Notes: generated from the letters alone by a model not told the origin. A stretch of 54,166 nt of DNA from Caldisphaera sp. (GCA_049971805.1 JBMFKU010000009.1:1-54166), one strand, 5' to 3'. Numbered from the stretch's first letter, positions 40,874 to 48,663 are shown. Numbers and translations: made by a program.

Positions 40874-41518
40874 TTAAATATTAATTGAGTTCATTTCAGA
40901 ATACCTTAATAACATTTCTGATAGCCTTGTTAACCTATAATAAACATGGTGTGTTCTAGTTTCTTCTTTCGGTTTTGCCTTTCTATGTTTTGCCTTTATT
41001 ATTTTTTCTTTTACGCTAACAATTAGTCCTAGTCTTTCAAGATTTTCTAATAGGTCTATTATTTTGCATGTCTTTTCTTCCAAAACTTTAGCTATTGTAC
41101 CTGCATGCTCATTCTCAGCTTCTCTTAAAAAAATAAGTAATTTTAATGTGTTTTCACAACCTGTAATGGATGTAAAATATGTGTTTAGATCTTTATAGTT
41201 TTTCGTTAGATGCCTTATAATTAGGTTAGTATCCTTAGTAAGCTCATAATATGTATGATGTTTTCTAACTTCTTCAGCTAATTTAAATCTAGCATCACTT
41301 CTTTTTATCGAGCTACCCTGGTACCTTTGTATTAATTTTAGTTTTTCAAGCTTATCTAGTTCATCTGTTATAGGTTCTATTGGCATTTCTAGAATGGATG
41401 CTATCGATTTTGCATAATCAATATTAGCTCTCTTTAAATGAAACAATATATATAGATCTAAAGGGCTTATACCTTTAATCTTCTCTAATTCAATTTTTGG
41501 TTCGTTTCTTTTATCCAT
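40874..41518 (-). CDS. Tandem winged-HTH protein (two DUF2250-like repeats)
   Basis: Two homologous halves, each with an HTH and a HH.YY.LT ending. Confidence 0.75.
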   Translation of the reverse strand: MDKRNEPKIELEKIKGISPLDLYILFHLKRANIDYAKSIASILEMPIEPITDELDKLEKLKLIQRYQGSSIKRSDARFKLAEEVRKHHTYYELTKDTNLIIRHLTKNYKDLNTYFTSITGCENTLKLLIFLREAENEHAGTIAKVLEEKTCKIIDLLENLERLGLIVSVKEKIIKAKHRKAKPKEETRTHHVYYRLTRLSEMLLRYSEMNSINI

Positions 41519-41659: not shown

Positions 41660-42358
41660 ATGGAAATTTATGTAGGTACATCGGGTTGGATGTACTCATG
41701 GAATTTAGGAAGATCATTAGATTGGTACGTGCAAAAATCTAATTTAAATACTGTTGAATTAAATTCATCATTTTATAGGTTTCCGTATAAAAATCAAATT
41801 AAATCTTGGTCAGAAAAAGGTAAAGATATAAGATGGGCAATAAAAGTTCATAAATCTGTATCACATACACATAGATTAGATAAGAACTCTTATGATGTAT
41901 GGAGCAAATTTATAGATTCATTTAAAGAAATGGATAATATCATAGATTTTTATTTAATACAATTACCACCTTCCTTTGCAAAAAATGAAGAAAATGTTAA
42001 CAGAATTATAGATTTTTCAAGGTTTGCTAATATTAATAAAAGGCTAGCGATTGAATTTAGAAATAATTCTTGGTTTAATGAAGAAACCATAGATTTGTTT
42101 AGAAAGCTTGATATGACAATAGTTAGCATCAGCTCACCGATAGGAGAATTCATTTCTTTATCTAACGATATTATTTATTTAAGGATGCACGGAAAAAATA
42201 AATGGTATTTTTATGAGTATAGTAAAAAAGAACTTAATGAGATAGCAAATAAAATATATAGTTTAAAACCTAAAAAGATTTATGTATATTTTAACAATGA
42301 TCTATGGATGCTCAGCAATGGAATTTATATGTTAAACCTATTAAGATCCTTAAATTAA
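41660..42358 (+). CDS. DUF72 family protein
   Basis: VGTSGW.Y, VELNSSFY..P, QLPPSF, EFR..SW, YLRMHG, YFNND motifs. Confidence 0.92.
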   Translation: MEIYVGTSGWMYSWNLGRSLDWYVQKSNLNTVELNSSFYRFPYKNQIKSWSEKGKDIRWAIKVHKSVSHTHRLDKNSYDVWSKFIDSFKEMDNIIDFYLIQLPPSFAKNEENVNRIIDFSRFANINKRLAIEFRNNSWFNEETIDLFRKLDMTIVSISSPIGEFISLSNDIIYLRMHGKNKWYFYEYSKKELNEIANKIYSLKPKKIYVYFNNDLWMLSNGIYMLNLLRSLN

Positions 42359-43338
42359 AAGTCCGAATAAACAGATATTTTTCCATCTGAAATGTATGCC
42401 CCACAAAATCTGCAAAAGCCATTTTTCATAGGAGACCCGCAAATTGGGCACTTGTTTTCTTTTGCAATTGACCTATCTTTAAATAAACCTAATTGGATAC
42501 CCTTTTTAAACAAATATGCATGTGCATGGGATGTGAAGTCTATTTTATATTTTTCCTTTAAATCTTTGATTTCTTCAATCGTCGTTAATTTCTTCCATAG
42601 GTTTAATAAATTATCTGCTCCACTTCCAGACGTTATAGGGGTTTTATCTCTTAATGCAATATCTTTTAATCCATGCATTAATATAAATTTTCTTAACAAT
42701 AATTTACCATATTTTTTATTATCAATATAATTTATTTTACATTCTAACGGAGTTTTAATTGAAATTTCTTTTACCTTTTTGCTATATAATGGTTGCAATA
42801 AATTGATACCAAAACTCTGTGAAATAGGTTTAGAATTGAAAAATGCATTTCTTATTACATTTTTTAGCCAATTATTAAGGTAGTTTTCTTTCTTATCTAA
42901 AAGAAAATCATAGCCAAAAAATAGCTCATCACCTCCATCACCTGTTGATATACAATTGCAGTTTAATTCCTTGGCTTTCTTTAATCCAAGACATACTGAA
43001 ATGCCTGAAATTATCTCTATTGGATCTATTAGCTTTAATATTTTTAAAACTAAATTTAGGCAATCGTCTATTTCCGGAGAACTAACATCAAAATTAAAGA
43101 CGTTTATTTTCGCACCTATTTTTTCTGCAAAATAATTTATGTAATATTTGTCTTTTGCATCGTTTATTAGCACAGAGATTAGTTTTTGATCAACATTTCT
43201 TTTAAGTAAAGATAATGCTATAAAGGTTGTATCGATACCTCCACTATATAATAAACAATTGCATTTTTTCTCATGTATTGAATTAAAGACAGATTCGGAC
43301 AGTTCATCTGCTATTTTAATGCAATTATCTATATCCAG
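42355..43338 (-). CDS. Asparagine synthetase-like ATP pyrophosphatase (synthetase domain only) with C-terminal zinc ribbon; non-canonical start
   Basis: The frame stays open 55 codons upstream of the tracked GTG (43173) and adds the PP-loop LLYSGGIDT. Also TGDGGDELFFGY, K.LLR, R.K and CPICG...CRFCG. The open frame begins at CTG 43338-43336, directly after GGGGGTGA. Confidence 0.8.
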   Translation of the reverse strand: MDIDNCIKIADELSESVFNSIHEKKCNCLLYSGGIDTTFIALSLLKRNVDQKLISVLINDAKDKYYINYFAEKIGAKINVFNFDVSSPEIDDCLNLVLKILKLIDPIEIISGISVCLGLKKAKELNCNCISTGDGGDELFFGYDFLLDKKENYLNNWLKNVIRNAFFNSKPISQSFGINLLQPLYSKKVKEISIKTPLECKINYIDNKKYGKLLLRKFILMHGLKDIALRDKTPITSGSGADNLLNLWKKLTTIEEIKDLKEKYKIDFTSHAHAYLFKKGIQLGLFKDRSIAKENKCPICGSPMKNGFCRFCGAYISDGKISVYSDF

Positions 43339-43349
43339 TCACCCCCTTT

Positions 43350-44297
43350 TCAATAGATGTATAAAATTGTTAATATAGTAACTACTATTAATATTATATA
43401 TGATAAAGAAATTATCTTTAATGATTTAAATACTTCATTATAGCTAGGTAAAGATCCAGCTCCTAGTTTATATTCTCCAATTTTTTCTAACGATATGTTT
43501 AATGAGCCTGCCATTGCAGACATAGGATTTCCAGCATTTTTGCTTTCAGTTTTTTTTCTGAAATTTTTCCATACTTTTAAAAGATTTCTTATATTATTTC
43601 TTGTAAAAAAAGATGATATTGCAATAATGATGATTGAAAGCCTAGCTGGGATATAGTTTATTATAGTGTCTGTCATGGCACTTGCATAGCCCACATTTAA
43701 GTGCTCCTTGTCTTTAAACCCTAGAGATCCATCTAATGTATTTATGATTCTTTGAATCAAGCTTCCTATAGGTCCTAATAATAAAAGCCAAAATATGGGT
43801 GATAAAACGCTATCAACAAAGCTTTCAGATAGTGATTCAATCGCTGCAGATGCTATATGATTTGCATCTAAGTTTTCTACATTTCTTCTAACAATTTGAC
43901 TAACATTACTTCTTGCGGAAATAAGATCATTTTCTTTGATTGACTCACCAACCTTTTTTACTATATCATAAAGTAGTTTGTAAGAAAAAGATGTTTTTAT
44001 AATATAGGCAGAAGCTATTATCCATAGAATTGGGCTAACTAGTAATGATAAATATAATAATAATGTGTAGATAAGCAAATGACTTAAAACTACTAATATC
44101 CAAATTAAAAGGCCTCTCACCCTTGATGAATAAGGTTTATAGAGCCTTTGTGACATTAAAAAAGAAGTATGAACTGGATGAATTTTTAATAAAAATCCCC
44201 TATGATATGGATATATAACATCTAAAAACAAAGCTAAGAGAAAAGAAGCCATAAAATAATATTTATTAGGAAATAAAAATTTTGGTAGATATAGCAT
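43350..44297 (-). CDS. cbiB: Adenosylcobinamide-phosphate synthase
   Basis: HPV, IV.R, AAIESLSES.VD...SP, INTLD..LG, D...NYIPARL, S.NAG.PM.AMAG.L motifs. Confidence 0.93.
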   Translation of the reverse strand: MLYLPKFLFPNKYYFMASFLLALFLDVIYPYHRGFLLKIHPVHTSFLMSQRLYKPYSSRVRGLLIWILVVLSHLLIYTLLLYLSLLVSPILWIIASAYIIKTSFSYKLLYDIVKKVGESIKENDLISARSNVSQIVRRNVENLDANHIASAAIESLSESFVDSVLSPIFWLLLLGPIGSLIQRIINTLDGSLGFKDKEHLNVGYASAMTDTIINYIPARLSIIIIAISSFFTRNNIRNLLKVWKNFRKKTESKNAGNPMSAMAGSLNISLEKIGEYKLGAGSLPSYNEVFKSLKIISLSYIILIVVTILTILYIY

Positions 44298-45025
44298 TAT
44301 TTAACCACCAATAGAAGGGAAATAATTTCTACTACTTCAATTGTAAAACCTATCACATCTCCATTAGTAAATCCAATCCTCTTTTTTGAATCTCTTATTA
44401 TAATTGGAATAGCCAATAATGATATTTGGGAATAAATCAAAATATAATTTTTAAATAAAAATAGTATCAAAAATAATAAAGCTAAATAAATAATTAAATT
44501 AATGATAAATTTTTTATTATTTTTTGAATTTTTAATAAATAAGCTACCACTTCCATCATAGTTTGGTGCTGTTCCAAAAAATGATATCAGATATGATGAT
44601 TCAAGTCCTGCTAAATATGATAGTAAGATAATTTCATAGCTTTTATCAAAGATAAAAAACAATGAAAGTCTTAATATTATTAAACAGGAAGTAAAAACAA
44701 TGGCAAAGCTACCTTTTCTTGGATCCTTTAAAATTTTCAATGCATCAATACCTGTTTTTCTTGATCCTATCACGTCTGAATAGTCAGCAAATCCGTCTAG
44801 ATGTAAAGCTCCTGTAATTATTATATGAGATATCAATAAGAGAGAGGCATTAATAATTTGGGGGAAAAACAGCAAGTAAGACGCAAGAGATATTATTAAT
44901 CCCTCGATTATGCCAATAATCGGAGATAAATAAAATACTTCTGATGCATCTATCAAACTATTTTGCTTTGTTGGAATAATGGTAAAAAAAGATAATAAGC
45001 TAAGGAACTTTTTTATCTTTTTCAT
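44297..45025 (-). CDS. cobS: Adenosylcobinamide-GDP ribazoletransferase (cobalamin synthase)
   Basis: FFT.IP, TGALHLDGFAD..D, KDPR.G.F, G.TNGDVIG...E motifs. Confidence 0.93.
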   Translation of the reverse strand: MKKIKKFLSLLSFFTIIPTKQNSLIDASEVFYLSPIIGIIEGLIISLASYLLFFPQIINASLLLISHIIITGALHLDGFADYSDVIGSRKTGIDALKILKDPRKGSFAIVFTSCLIILRLSLFFIFDKSYEIILLSYLAGLESSYLISFFGTAPNYDGSGSLFIKNSKNNKKFIINLIIYLALLFLILFLFKNYILIYSQISLLAIPIIIRDSKKRIGFTNGDVIGFTIEVVEIISLLLVVK

Positions 45026-46061
45026 TTAAAACACCATTAATTGCGTCTATTAATTTTATATTATCTCCATGTAATCTAATTGATATCCTTGAATAATTTT
45101 TGTTTAAACCATAAAAAGTAGAAGCATCTCTTATGTATATTCCTTTTTTAATTAGTTCTTTTTTAAATAAAGGATTGGGCATGATTTCATGTTTAATCAA
45201 TAAAAAGGCCGTTCTGCTGTTATAAACCTTTAATTCTTTGTTTAAACTGTTTTCAATAAATTGCCTTTCCTTTTTTATTGTTTTGTTAGCATTATCTATA
45301 TAATTTTTTATAAATTCTTTATTTTTTAAAATTTTAGAATAAAAACAATTAGTTATTGCATCTATAGGCCAGGCTTGTATTGATGATTCTATTTTTTCAA
45401 TAAATTTATAATTTAATGATATAATTTCTCCCAACCTAAAGCCGGGTGTTGAAAAAGTCTTTGTTTGGCTTCTTAGCAAAATGTATTCTTCAGATGGTTT
45501 TAATGGATCACAGTCTGATATTTCTATAAATGCCTCATCTATAATTATATTAACATCTTTATCTAAATTATCGATAATTTCATTTATGTCATTTATTTTT
45601 AAACAAAAACCTATAGGATTATTTGGTCTTGAAAAAATTAATAGTGAAGACCCCTTTAAGCTTTTAATGATTTTAATAATTTTTTCAGTATCAATATAAT
45701 TTTTGTTTTCAATGTCTAAAGTTATTCTAATCAGTTTTGATCTTATTGCATTAGATAGGATTTTATGGTCTCCAAAGTTTGGTTCTATTATTATTAAATT
45801 TTTTGGCCTAAATAAAATTGGAATTAATGATAATGCTTCATCACTTCCGTTTATAGGTATGATGAAATCTTTATTAATATTAAAATAGTTTGATAGATAA
45901 TTTCTAAGCTTATTATATGATGGATATCTCTCATAGGATCTATTTTTTATGCAATTTTCTAAAATTTTTTTTGCTATCTTAGGTGCTCCTAGCGGATTTG
46001 ATGGTGCACTAAAATCCGTTAAGTTTTTATTTTGAGATCCTCCATGAAATCTTTTAATCAT
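45000..46061 (-). CDS. cobD: L-threonine-O-3-phosphate decarboxylase (PLP-dependent)
   Basis: HGG, DFS...NPLG, NG..E, PNNP.G, DEAF, RS.TK.F..PG.RLG motifs; position in the cob operon. Start placed at ATG 46061. Confidence 0.85.
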   Translation of the reverse strand: MIKRFHGGSQNKNLTDFSAPSNPLGAPKIAKKILENCIKNRSYERYPSYNKLRNYLSNYFNINKDFIIPINGSDEALSLIPILFRPKNLIIIEPNFGDHKILSNAIRSKLIRITLDIENKNYIDTEKIIKIIKSLKGSSLLIFSRPNNPIGFCLKINDINEIIDNLDKDVNIIIDEAFIEISDCDPLKPSEEYILLRSQTKTFSTPGFRLGEIISLNYKFIEKIESSIQAWPIDAITNCFYSKILKNKEFIKNYIDNANKTIKKERQFIENSLNKELKVYNSRTAFLLIKHEIMPNPLFKKELIKKGIYIRDASTFYGLNKNYSRISIRLHGDNIKLIDAINGVLNEKDKKVP

Positions 46062-46581
46062 GACAAATCTCCTTGATTTTTTGCAAGTCATATAGTGTAT
46101 TTAAGTTAAATAATTCTTTCTCATAATTCACTTTTATGCTTTTCCATTTATCATAATTGTATCCCTTAAAAATAGATATACCAGTATATTCTCCATGTTT
46201 ATTTAATATAGTTATTAGAGGTTCTCTAAAATTAAGCGATTTGCTAAGTATTTCTATTAATACTTCTTTATTTAAAAAAGGGAAATCGGAAGGTAATATT
46301 AGTATAGGTCTTTTCTTTATTATATTTAATAAGATACTTAAGTCAACAGAATAATTTATACCGGGAGTGTAAATTATTAATGCATTAGTATTTTTTAAAA
46401 TATCAACATATTTTTCTGTGTTTTCTGATATTGCAATTGCTATGAAATCACTTATATAGGAAGCAACCTCCAAAATATTTATGATCATAGGTTTACCACA
46501 AATTTTTGTAAAAGGCTTGTAGCTTGAATTAAATCTAGTCCCTTTTCCTCCAGCCATTATTATGCTTATAGGAATCCTCAT
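46054..46581 (-). CDS. cobY: Adenosylcobinamide-phosphate guanylyltransferase
   Basis: IMAGGKGTR, KP, G.NY..DL, SD.P, N.NT..DL motifs; position in the cob operon. Confidence 0.85.
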   Translation of the reverse strand: MRIPISIIMAGGKGTRFNSSYKPFTKICGKPMIINILEVASYISDFIAIAISENTEKYVDILKNTNALIIYTPGINYSVDLSILLNIIKKRPILILPSDFPFLNKEVLIEILSKSLNFREPLITILNKHGEYTGISIFKGYNYDKWKSIKVNYEKELFNLNTLYDLQKIKEICHD

Positions 46582-47681
46582 TGGTTACCACCAAATAAAT
46601 AATCATAAATTTTTGATAATGCAGAACCTATTAAGGCAGAAGCAATATCATCTTCAAACATTGGCAATCTAGATATAGACAAATTAAGCCTATCTTTTGA
46701 TGAGTCAACCCAATATGTTGCAGTTAATCCCTTAAAGCCAGACAAATATATGCTTAATGATGAAGCCAAAGCCTCATCAGCAATTATCCTCTTCGTGTCT
46801 TTTTCATACTCTTCTTTAGCTAAAAAAGGGAAAGTATTGCTCTCTCCTCTTAAATCTATTTCTCTTGCTGCAATAATAAAAGACCAAACATTTGGATCAT
46901 TTAAGAAATTGTTTATTTGATGTTTGATCAATATTCTGATATTATTTATATCCTTCCCAGGAACAGGGGCTAACTGATACAATTTTATAGCTTCTTCAAC
47001 TAAACCATTTATATCTAGTCCTAACGATCTTTTTAGCAACTCATCTTTTTCTTTGTTTTCTTCGAATGAAATGAGGGTTTCATGTATTAACCTTGATATA
47101 TAATTGCCATGCTTTGTCGACAATCCACTCCACATATATCCATTTTTACTTATTTTTGCTGCAACTGTTATTCCATCGCTTGATGTACCAGATGACCTTG
47201 ATTTGCACCTTATTAATAAATCGCTTGCAGAAAGGCATTTAGATTCAGTAACTGTTCTAAATAAATCTAATAATCCGCTGAATGTCAGCTCATGATTGAG
47301 CCACGCTATTATATTTATTGTTCCTTTTTCAGCGTTAAATAAATTTTCTTGATATATGCAGTTTGGAATTTCAAAACTAGCAGTTATTAAAACTCCACCC
47401 ATTTCTCTTTCTTTAATCTTATAATTTTTTATATTAACAGATGTAGCCATTACTGGAACTTCATTGCTTAAACCCAATGAAGATATAACATTTTCTCTAA
47501 ACAATTTGAAGTCATTTATTTTTATATTTTCATTAACTTGAGATATTACAACCTTATCGCTTTCAGTTATGCCATCTATATATGAAGTTGAAAGCATGTG
47601 CATTTTATTTTCAAATTTTATTAATAAATTATTTTTAATTGTTTCAATTTTTACCAATCTTTTCAAGCCTCTCATATTCAT
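46578..47681 (-). CDS. cbiS: Bifunctional adenosylcobinamide amidohydrolase (CbiZ) / alpha-ribazole phosphatase (CobZ) fusion
   Basis: N-terminal half has GTINI, TE.K, SGT.SD (CbiZ). C-terminal half has DPNV, ADE, Y..G.KG, LP.F.DD (archaeal CobZ). Confidence 0.82.
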   Translation of the reverse strand: MNMRGLKRLVKIETIKNNLLIKFENKMHMLSTSYIDGITESDKVVISQVNENIKINDFKLFRENVISSLGLSNEVPVMATSVNIKNYKIKEREMGGVLITASFEIPNCIYQENLFNAEKGTINIIAWLNHELTFSGLLDLFRTVTESKCLSASDLLIRCKSRSSGTSSDGITVAAKISKNGYMWSGLSTKHGNYISRLIHETLISFEENKEKDELLKRSLGLDINGLVEEAIKLYQLAPVPGKDINNIRILIKHQINNFLNDPNVWSFIIAAREIDLRGESNTFPFLAKEEYEKDTKRIIADEALASSLSIYLSGFKGLTATYWVDSSKDRLNLSISRLPMFEDDIASALIGSALSKIYDYLFGGNQ

Positions 47682-48663
47682 TATAAATAAATTTCTTTAT
47701 TTGGCTATTGTCAAATCCCAGCATCTTGGCTAATATTAGTGTGCCCCCTGCTCCCACACCTTCTTTTACATAACCTTCTTCATAAAGCTTTAAGCCGTCA
47801 TATTTTGAATCACGAAAATCAAGATCTGATGAGATAATTTCTACATTGTTTATTTGTTTTAATAATGAAACTATGTTGGAGTCTTTATCGTTAATTATCC
47901 ACTTTGTAGTTGCTACCTTTATTTTATTATTAAATAAACCCAATTTAGTTAAAATTGAAATTACTGCACCCATCTGGGTACCTCCTGATAACAAGACGAT
48001 ACGAGAGTTCTTAGATGAGCCAAAAGCAATTCCAGCTAAAGCTATGTGAACTGGGTCTCCAACTTCATCAACTATATAAAAAACATCATTTATTTCTTTC
48101 TTTATTCTTTTCAGTGCATCTTTAACAACAATTCTTTTCAATTCCTTAGGATTGTTTGGTGATGTACTGCTTACGAGATCTATGGCTTCATAACCCAAAC
48201 CCTCCATTATTGCTGATGCTGTTGTAGTACCACCGGGTATGCTTTCTCCAATTAAAACAACATCATGATTTCTTGATATTATTTCACCCAATTTAATGGA
48301 TTCATAAAATATTGATTTAGCAGTTCCATATTTTAATGCGTTTTTCCCCTTTATATTGCTTCCGGGCATGGCGTTTGGTAATAAAATATGTGGTACCTTC
48401 AGCTTATAAAAAAGACCCGAATCTACAACAAAAAACGGTATGCAAATGTTTTCTAATACACTCCTTGTTATAACTGCTGGAGTTGGTAGACCTTCAGGTG
48501 TTACTGGTATTTCTTTTTTAGTTATAGGCAAACCATTAACTAAATACTCTAAATCTAACGTCGGTGTATATAATGTATCTTTGTTTGAAGAACCTGCTAT
48601 GCTTATCCCCTCTATGGTAGAGGTCTCTGTTGATCCTCCAACATAAACACCAATTGCATTCAT
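47644..48663 (-). CDS. cobT: Archaeal nicotinate-nucleotide:base phosphoribosyltransferase CobT
   Basis: T..I.GIS.AG, TP.LD.E, PTPAVIT, GESIPGGTTTA, GDP, GGTQM, YEEG.VKEGVGAGG motifs. Confidence 0.9.
   Translation of the reverse strand: MNAIGVYVGGSTETSTIEGISIAGSSNKDTLYTPTLDLEYLVNGLPITKKEIPVTPEGLPTPAVITRSVLENICIPFFVVDSGLFYKLKVPHILLPNAMPGSNIKGKNALKYGTAKSIFYESIKLGEIISRNHDVVLIGESIPGGTTTASAIMEGLGYEAIDLVSSTSPNNPKELKRIVVKDALKRIKKEINDVFYIVDEVGDPVHIALAGIAFGSSKNSRIVLLSGGTQMGAVISILTKLGLFNNKIKVATTKWIINDKDSNIVSLLKQINNVEIISSDLDFRDSKYDGLKLYEEGYVKEGVGAGGTLILAKMLGFDNSQIKKFIYNEYERLEKIGKN

Follow-up and report, generated by a model that had tools for sequence, protein, structure and literature searches.

The window analysed here is a 54,166-nucleotide (nt) stretch of DNA from Caldisphaera sp. 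(JBMFKU010000009.1:1-54166, assembly GCA_049971805.1), whose minus strand carries a cobamide salvage operon ending in a gene for an asparagine synthetase-like protein. We call this protein AsnX (42355-43338, minus strand; 327 codons and a stop). It is predicted to be a glutaminase-less, AsnB-type PP-loop adenylating enzyme with a zinc-ribbon-like motif at its C-terminus. Its fold, gene neighbourhoods and distribution make it a serious possibility, if short of a probable one, that AsnX works in cobamide salvage and not in asparagine synthesis: it may be an ammonia-dependent ligase which forms adenosine monophosphate (AMP) and re-amidates free carboxylate side chains of salvaged corrinoids, supplying adenosylcobyric acid to CbiB.

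AsnX is a distinct family with the asparagine synthetase fold

PF00733 is the sole Pfam family that AsnX matches above threshold (expect value (E) 7.8e-12, 45.9 bits against a gathering cut-off of 21, residues 9-152). The PP-loop SGGIDT, the adenosine triphosphate (ATP) pyrophosphatase motif, lies at residues 32-37 (43228-43245, minus strand), and its S32, G34 and D36 are invariant in alignments. At residues 132-143 (42910-42945, minus strand), TGDGGDELFFGY aligns as the counterpart of the SGEGSDE loop of asparagine synthetase in human ASNS, with G133, G136, D137, E138, G142 and Y143 invariant. Near the C-terminus is CPICG..(8)..CRFCG, a four-cysteine zinc-ribbon-like motif (residues 297-312; 42403-42450, minus strand). 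Residues invariant across all forms of the family and across phyla are S32, G34, D36, D63, G133, G136, D137, E138, F140, G142, Y143, F145, G211, K212, R216, K232, P234, G238 and G240.

The Pfam search found no glutaminase domain, neither the class II N-terminal nucleophile (Ntn) type nor any other GATase family, and about 25-30 residues precede the PP-loop. The nitrogen donor would therefore not be glutamine, but ammonia from solution or another amine. An earlier note on this DNA had read both motifs, the missing glutaminase domain and a CxxC..CxxC ribbon from the sequence, and all of these are as it described.

A sequence search of solved structures with AsnX returned marginal matches only (best E 0.021), so a fold search was needed. 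The AlphaFold2 model, built with 21 homologues in the alignment, has a predicted local distance difference test score (pLDDT) of 95.2 and a predicted template modelling score (pTM) of 0.92. In it, CPICG and CRFCG are modelled as short strands (pLDDT 89-93), with putative zinc binding. Among PDB entries, Foldseek ranks the E. coli AsnB synthetase domain first (1ct9, E 2.2e-12, template modelling score (TM) 0.68). The human ASNS synthetase domain follows with TM 0.69-0.71, and the AsnB and ASNS matches overall span E 2e-12 to 1e-10 and TM 0.67-0.71. Next come the beta-lactam and carbapenam synthetases (1mc1, 1q19; E 5e-11 to 1e-10), which adenylate their substrates and make no asparagine, so the AsnB fold accepts other carboxylates. 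Unlike AsnX, they have chains of 490-500 residues, of which some 200 form a degenerate N-terminal domain, and they have no link to cob genes.

AsnX has in common with the AsnB/ASNS synthetase domain (PF00733; 1ct9, 6gq3) the fold, the PP-loop SGGxD(S/T), the G-x-G-x-D-E loop and a conserved lysine, and it is thus expected to form an acyl-adenylate and release pyrophosphate (PPi). It departs from these enzymes in lacking the N-terminal Ntn glutaminase domain, in its low identity (17-19% to solved structures), in the extra C-terminal four-cysteine ribbon and in its cobamide salvage context. Only part of the conserved ASNS synthetase site is kept. In a HMMER alignment to ASNS (8sue/6gq3), Asp-367 and Glu-368 correspond to Asp137 and Glu138 and Glu-364 to Asp134, whereas Asp-400 and Arg-403 are replaced by Ala165 and Asn168; both of the latter are conserved synthetase-site residues of human ASNS according to the available part of PMC6748925. 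The counterpart of Lys-466 is probably K232, which falls outside the aligned stretch. Taken together, the fold and the invariant residues point to ATP binding and predict acyl-adenylate formation on a substrate other than aspartate.

The earlier note had taken the gene product for an uncharacterised amide ligase of asparagine synthetase type. By its family scores it is no AsnB orthologue: AsnX reaches 54.8 bits against a cut-off of 499 for the AsnB equivalog NF006949, and 42.5 against 267.1 for TIGR01536. Pfam and NCBIfam searches gave no match between AsnX and the CbiP/CobQ families (CbiA-type ATPase, GATase_3), and the Pfam search none to PF01902 (DUF71). Judged by sequence, AsnX is a distinct family.

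Two CxC pairs, C25-x-C27 and C127-x-C129 (43258-43266 and 42942-42950), immediately precede the strands that run up to the PP-loop and to the GDGGDE loop. The second pair, C127 and C129, hardly varies, and most long forms of the family also have C25 and C27; the pairs are mostly absent from short forms and from other phyla. They could form a second metal site or disulfides.

AsnX genes are associated with cob genes across phyla

A search of 5.8 billion proteins returned 44 relatives of similar length (290-375 amino acids (aa)) under Caldisphaera, Acidilobus, Desulfurococcales and Thermoprotei names; public records label AsnX as asparagine synthase-related. Among 351 genomes of the window's class, 133 have a match and 130 were kept as AsnX, a count which leaves out G180, G184 and G185, whose matches (E 1e-13 to 1e-15) lie in frames of 479-618 aa, the ordinary size of AsnB. 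The family has two forms: a long one of about 320 aa with the cysteine ribbon, whose C297, C300, C309 and C312 are invariant in 21 long forms, and a short one of about 250-260 aa that ends ahead of the ribbon. Because their matches seemed to contain stops, the short forms were considered as pseudogenes; this was rejected, as ORF (open reading frame) maps show intact frames of about 250-260 aa and the alignments had overrun the natural stop.

The order cobS-cbiB-AsnX-(DUF72)-(DUF2250) does not vary within the window's genus or its sister genus. Farther out, 20 of 39 loci from many genera have AsnX beside the six-gene cob cluster, at either end and in either orientation; these loci were hand-picked with the class-wide AsnX and cbiB matches in view, so the fraction is no unbiased rate. 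The gene follows cbiB on the same strand, converges with it, or diverges from cobT, and these varied placements imply repeated reshuffling of gene order with the association retained. We also looked at the 80 best-matching loci of a search across 185,579 species genomes: 31 of these have a cob gene within 3 kilobases (kb) (cbiB in 21, cobD in 21, cobT in 5, cbiS in 6), 32 have a gene for DUF71-B12, a second PP-loop enzyme described below, within the same distance, and 48 have one or the other. Among the linked loci are records labelled Odinarchaeota, Borrarchaeum, DHVE2, Methanomethylicia, Nitrososphaeria/Thaumarchaeota, Thermoproteota, Omnitrophota and Dehalococcoidales. Linkage to cbiB, which the earlier note had named as something to look for, thus extends well beyond the window's genome.

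AsnX and cobQ are nearly mutually exclusive

Across the 351 class genomes, AsnX occurs in 130, cbiB in 177 and full-length cobQ in 60; 106 have both AsnX and cbiB, and 150 have neither. The 177 cbiB genomes divide into 104 with AsnX only, 53 with cobQ only, two with both and 18 with neither, and none of ten AsnX genomes from other phyla, of unstated completeness, has cobQ. This is the anti-correlation with cbiP/cobQ that had been anticipated, albeit one confounded with lifestyle. Full-length cobQ is found almost entirely in one Sulfolobaceae-looking family (46/47), one other family and a few scattered genera. Within a single genus, G340 has cobQ without AsnX and G341 has AsnX without cobQ. In cobQ genomes of the class, some 0.8 kb separate cobQ from cbiB, a placing like that of AsnX.

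The earlier note had found no cobQ/cbiP or cbiA in the window, and a profile search of the whole genome (G000, 96.6% complete) likewise finds no cobQ (TIGR00313) and no cbiA. Neither cbiA nor cbiC is present in the four AsnX genomes tested (G000, G060, G041 and G189), and the cobQ genome G320 has both. From these gene contents, AsnX appears to mark salvage-only organisms and cobQ de novo producers. Cobamides are indeed used by the salvagers, since all five of these genomes encode B12-binding domains and an adenosyltransferase of the PduO type. The suggestion that AsnX is a non-orthologous substitute for CbiP therefore finds support in one respect and fails in another: the near mutual exclusion with cobQ favours it, but with cbiA and cbiC absent from G000 and three AsnX relatives, there is no de novo pathway here within which AsnX could replace CbiP.

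CbiZ is present in the window and in all seven archaeal AsnX genomes tested, so AsnX is no substitute for CbiZ there. Neither CbiZ nor cobQ turned up in the three bacterial AsnX genomes tested; two of them show cbiB-cobD-AsnX with DUF71-B12 nearby, and the third cobS-DUF71-B12-AsnX. Something other than CbiZ or CbiP must therefore feed CbiB in these bacteria.

Several frames with a length near 300 aa match the cobQ model over roughly its first 200 positions only, which cover the ATPase half and not the glutaminase half, with E of 1e-32 to 1e-36 (G249:C37:15904-16530, G205:C70, G208:C58, G186:C165, G248:C24, G121:C194 and G125:C57). One of them is at a distance of 6 kb from AsnX. Such frames might encode CobQ-like enzymes that depend on ammonia, or relatives of ParA/MinD. 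In G205, G208 and G220 (L046:4614-6122, L071, L041), a radical SAM protein of 503-506 aa is encoded directly upstream of AsnX; PF04055 covers its residues 225-407 and its N-terminal half has no family match. G205 and G208 have no DUF71-B12.

A second PP-loop enzyme accompanies AsnX

Clustering of the neighbouring genes revealed a family of about 210 aa. In 22 of the 39 loci it is the immediate neighbour of AsnX, as a rule sharing its strand and in many cases overlapping it by a few bases, even where the locus is distant from the cob cluster. This companion, which the earlier note had overlooked, belongs to PF01902 (diphthamide synthase, DUF71) and carries the motifs SGGKDS and GExGEYHT. According to the available part of de Crecy-Lagard et al. 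2012 (PMC3541065), a GExGEYHT-type signature splits the subgroup DUF71-B12 from the true diphthine-ammonia ligase Dph6. The same source describes DUF71-B12 in many bacteria, clustered with btuCDF and cbiB and anti-correlated with CbiZ, and predicts a role in B12 salvage; a CbiZ-like activity was cautiously proposed there and was doubted by a reviewer, since PP-loop enzymes are ligases. That paper, supplements aside, makes no mention of an AsnB-like partner in the part available, and no later characterisation of DUF71-B12 was found in the literature.

DUF71-B12 resembles AsnX in being a stand-alone, glutaminase-less PP-loop enzyme that clusters with cbiB and whose function is a prediction; it differs in family (PF01902, not PF00733), in length, in its signature and in its wider distribution. 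Class-wide, it occurs in 115 of the 351 genomes, in 106 of them with AsnX and in none with cobQ, where membership was set at E <= 1e-36, a threshold of our own, and hits at 1e-26 to 1e-33 were taken as Dph6, so that borderline genomes are possibly misassigned. The window's genome has two PF01902 genes, one Dph6-like and one for DUF71-B12, located on a different contig (G000:C27:148-807) and carrying GENGEYHT, a motif of the ENGE(F/Y)H type. In G320, which has cobQ, there is a single PF01902 gene.

We modelled AsnX together with DUF71-B12. The predicted complex scored 0.41 (runs 0.41, 0.25 and 0.54) against 0.11 for the best control; at least 75% of contacts agree between runs, and the partner has pLDDT of at least 84. 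Of 80 solved complexes 58 attain the mark for calling a complex, as do 2 of 110 mismatched pairs, a calibration that is only rough here as our own alignments were used, and scores of 0.60 or lower comprise just seven of those 80 solved complexes along with both passing mismatches. The model thus lends weak support to a complex of the two proteins.

A search for fused forms of AsnX (574-2000 aa, E <= 1e-8) found none among 6153 candidates, which is weak evidence. The metagenomic protein P0043 (458 aa), with a distant glutaminase-less AsnB-like domain and a DUF71 domain, was considered as an AsnX/DUF71-B12 fusion and rejected: its DUF71 domain has the Dph6-type EGGEFE motif, which places it in the diphthamide branch. 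It does illustrate that both PP-loop folds can work as a single polypeptide.

Within the window's genus the gene for DUF71-B12 stands apart from the cob operon and lies directly downstream of a conserved gene of about 185 aa (L077 = G000:C27:148-1371; L078). A nearby gene that by eye resembles D-isomer 2-hydroxyacid dehydrogenases is downstream in L078 and upstream, on the other strand, in L077. In the complete genome G270, which has cbiB, the DUF71-B12 match is split into two pieces that overlap (positions 2-117 and 108-207 of the model), and after them comes an AsnX match cut down to positions 29-197 (G270:C1:1329444-1330674); this may be a decaying copy of the pair.

Proposed role in corrinoid re-amidation

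Cobamide salvage is, to our knowledge, considered fully mapped from cobinamide onwards, through CbiZ, CbiB, CobY, CobS and CobZ. A conserved pair of predicted ATP-dependent amide ligases tied to salvage suggests an extra, undescribed step, most simply the repair of de-amidated corrinoids. In producers, the side chains are amidated by CbiA at positions a and c and by CbiP at b, d, e and g. What salvagers miss, producers have and amide ligases of the ammonia type could supply is most simply this amidation.

The side-chain amides of B12 hydrolyse under acid, base or heat to give inactive mono- to hepta-carboxylic acids (PMC9822362, available part), so an organism living on scavenged corrinoids would meet hydrolysed forms. 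We propose that AsnX would adenylate a free carboxylate side chain of a salvaged corrinoid, converting ATP to an acyl-AMP and PPi, and that free ammonia would attack the acyl-AMP to restore the carboxamide. Together with DUF71-B12, the Dph6 relative, it would convert incompletely amidated or hydrolysed corrinoids to adenosylcobyric acid under some division of labour. Adenosylcobyric acid is the substrate of the neighbouring CbiB, with aminopropanol phosphate provided via CobD, and the pair would give salvage-only organisms the amidation capacity that CbiA and CbiP hold in de novo producers. That the two enzymes form a glutamine-independent repair system for the carboxylates of scavenged or damaged corrinoids, an unrecognised branch of B12 salvage, is a reasonable proposal that we put forward tentatively.

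The proposed function is the same as that of CbiP/CobQ and CbiA/CobB, namely ATP-dependent amidation of corrinoid carboxylates upstream of CbiB, and cobQ too adjoins cbiB in class genomes; the likeness would be one of functional analogy. CbiP and CbiA are unrelated to AsnX in sequence and fold (MinD/CbiA-type ATPase plus GATase_3), use glutamine and serve de novo synthesis. They also phosphorylate the carboxylate rather than adenylating it.

Several observations weigh against this proposal. That AsnX would act on a corrinoid is deduced from genomic context, and Asp134 varies, being Ser or Glu in short forms, although Glu-364, to which it corresponds in ASNS, is required for catalysis. Linkage is incomplete: 19 of the 39 fetched loci are unlinked to the cob cluster, and in 32 of the 80 best-matching loci the nearest 3 kb contain no cob gene and no DUF71-B12. 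Of the 130 AsnX genomes, 24 have no cbiB match, five of which are at least 90% complete (G037, G038, G069, G101 and G348), and two have cobQ (G205 and G208); among the 18 cbiB genomes with neither AsnX nor cobQ, seven are at least 90% complete. Nine class genomes have DUF71-B12 without AsnX, so AsnX is not indispensable to DUF71-B12. The anti-correlation with cobQ is confounded with lifestyle, as the AsnX genomes tested lack cbiA and cbiC and any salvage-specific function would fit equally, and Fisher values overstate the AsnX/cobQ case because related genomes are not independent. AsnX also occurs in lineages neither hot nor acidic, which weakens a rationale based purely on heat or acid damage: repair after hydrolysis in hot acid, as the earlier note had it, is too narrow for a family with records from Bathyarchaeia, Asgard archaea, Dehalococcoidia and Omnitrophota. 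Finally, the window's own copy has no canonical start codon and may hence be poorly expressed or newly dead, a matter taken up below.

The enzyme class is already known; the AsnX family, the link of an AsnB-like gene to cobamide salvage and the pairing with DUF71-B12 were not found in the literature covered, most subscription journals and supplements aside, and are new as far as that literature goes. If the proposal is right, salvage-only archaea of several phyla and some bacteria could use hydrolysed, inactive B12 derivatives, and a wider range of B12-like molecules would be usable as nutrients in hot springs, sediments and other communities. DUF71-B12, unexplained since 2012, would acquire both a partner and a function, corrinoid amidation would have been solved a second time by a non-homologous route, and genome-based predictions of corrinoid use per organism would need revision. 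Purified proteins and commercially available cobalamin carboxylic acids allow a direct test of the prediction.

Alternative explanations and the start codon of AsnX

A different role in corrinoid salvage, with or without DUF71-B12, is a minority prospect with real arguments behind it: AsnX might help remodel complete cobamides or pseudo-B12 to a CbiB substrate, much as de Crecy-Lagard et al. suggested for DUF71-B12 by a CbiZ-like or some other route, or ligate an amine other than ammonia. The linkage and phyletic data would suit any salvage-specific function, the three bacterial AsnX genomes lack CbiZ and cobQ yet have cbiB-cobD beside AsnX, and the AsnB-fold beta-lactam and carbapenam synthetases close a ring with an intramolecular amine. 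The neighbourhoods offer no candidate amine or second substrate, however, and CbiZ is already present in the archaeal AsnX genomes and the window. The literature on DUF71-B12 cuts both ways, its anti-correlation with CbiZ in bacteria favouring such a role and the reviewer's objection to PP-loop enzymes as hydrolases opposing it (PMC3541065, available part).

It is improbable that AsnX is an activating subunit of the CbiB step, which would adenylate the f-propionate of adenosylcobyric acid and pass the acyl-adenylate to membrane-bound CbiB for the addition of aminopropanol phosphate. What speaks for this is that no cob genes lie within 3 kb of AsnX more often than cbiB and cobD, and that bacteria and other archaeal phyla repeatedly show the modules cbiB-cobD-AsnX and AsnX-DUF71-cobD-cbiB. 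Such adjacency is equally expected of an enzyme for the preceding step, as it is for cobQ, and 71 cbiB genomes do without AsnX (the 53 of the cobQ set and the 18 with neither gene), which disfavours the idea. The window's CbiB covers positions 2-257 of the 282 in its Pfam model, as it does elsewhere, with nothing apparently missing. Salmonella CbiB is not known to need an AsnX-like partner.

A further alternative concerns this copy and not the role of the family: the window's AsnX gene could be inactive or barely translated, its ATG start having become ATA. The missing canonical start, which had gone unremarked before, is evident on reading the sequence: from the upstream stop as far as the PP-loop, the AsnX frame has no ATG, GTG or TTG. 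Only at 43173 does a canonical start occur in frame, a GTG which gives the 272-aa product P0001 of the protein database, without PP-loop or ATP site. An out-of-frame GTG at 43340-43342 was rejected as the AsnX start, as it runs into a stop five codons on. Comparison with the upstream regions of 13 related loci places an ATA codon (43330-43332, minus strand) where same-genus loci have their ATG; it is probably a non-canonical start, or else a mutated one. All 13 relatives have a canonical ATG, GTG or TTG two to four codons ahead of a conserved cysteine, and in the six same-genus loci it is always ATG. A second assembly (Logan, from a hot-spring metagenome run that is likely the source sample and so not independent) is identical over 42300-44300 and has ATA at about 79x word depth.

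Set against loss of function are the 327-codon frame, intact despite DNA of about 28% G+C in which stops easily arise, and the retention of every family-invariant residue. There is also GGGGTGA (43340-43346, minus strand), read from the sequence as a Shine-Dalgarno-like run with a putative function in initiation, 6 nt upstream of ATA. With this run and a gap of 11 nt to cbiB, coupled or non-canonical initiation is plausible, and there is little chance that the copy is inactive.

Least likely is a housekeeping ammonia-dependent asparagine synthetase or other amino acid- or protein-amidating enzyme with an incidental position among cob genes: although AsnX is the only PF00733 gene of G000, conserves D137 and E138 (Asp-367 and Glu-368 of human ASNS) and is called asparagine synthase-related in public records, it follows cbiB and no universal need (150 of 351 genomes have neither gene, 106 of 130 AsnX genomes have cbiB), its cob linkage is conserved across phyla, it has lost the counterparts of Asp-400 and Arg-403 in the aspartate site, it scores far under the AsnB cut-offs, and the complete Sulfolobaceae-like genome G320 has no PF00733 gene at all, so the class does not depend on the AsnB fold for asparagine.

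The cobamide salvage operon and neighbouring genes

ORF coordinates and Pfam and NCBIfam searches agree with the order that had been read for the operon, an overlapping cobT-cbiS-cobY-cobD-cobS-cbiB followed about 11 nt on by an amide ligase-like gene. The six genes span 43350-48663 on the minus strand with mutual overlaps of 38, 4, 38, 26 and 1 nt, and the AsnX frame opens 11 nt past the cbiB stop. All six carry family matches, of which those of cbiB and cobT pass the curated NCBIfam cut-offs; cbiS, cobD, cobS and cobY are top matches under the cut-off, and these four names therefore lean partly on the conserved operon.

The first gene, cobT (47644-48663), encodes an archaeal-type nicotinate-mononucleotide:base phosphoribosyltransferase (NF003372, 388.8 bits against a cut-off of 306; TIGR00303, 312.2 against 240; PF02277, E 1e-06). 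It is followed by cbiS (46578-47681), a fusion of CbiZ (adenosylcobinamide amidohydrolase; PF01955, E 5.9e-34, residues 22-202) to CobZ (alpha-ribazole phosphatase; TIGR03161, residues 215-360), which scores 218.8 bits with the bifunctional CbiS model NF038002 against a cut-off of 250. The cobY-like gene for an adenosylcobinamide-phosphate guanylyltransferase (46054-46581) is named from its operon position and a weak family match (PF12804, E 5.7e-11; NF045495, 51.1 bits against 250). The cobD-like gene (45000-46091) encodes an L-threonine-O-3-phosphate decarboxylase, a pyridoxal phosphate enzyme (PF00155, E 1.3e-31; its top NCBIfam match is TIGR01140, 163.1 bits against 290.55), and cobS (44297-45025) a cobamide (5'-phosphate) synthase (PF02654, E 1.3e-39; TIGR00317, 101.7 bits against 110). 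Last comes cbiB (43350-44297), for the membrane protein adenosylcobinamide-phosphate synthase (PF03186, E 8.3e-72; NF002281, 320.8 bits against 273).

Beyond AsnX lie a convergent DUF72 gene (41660-42358, plus strand) and then a DUF2250 winged-helix gene (40874-41518, minus strand). The order AsnX-DUF72-DUF2250 is kept in the window's genus and its sister genus, and not further out.

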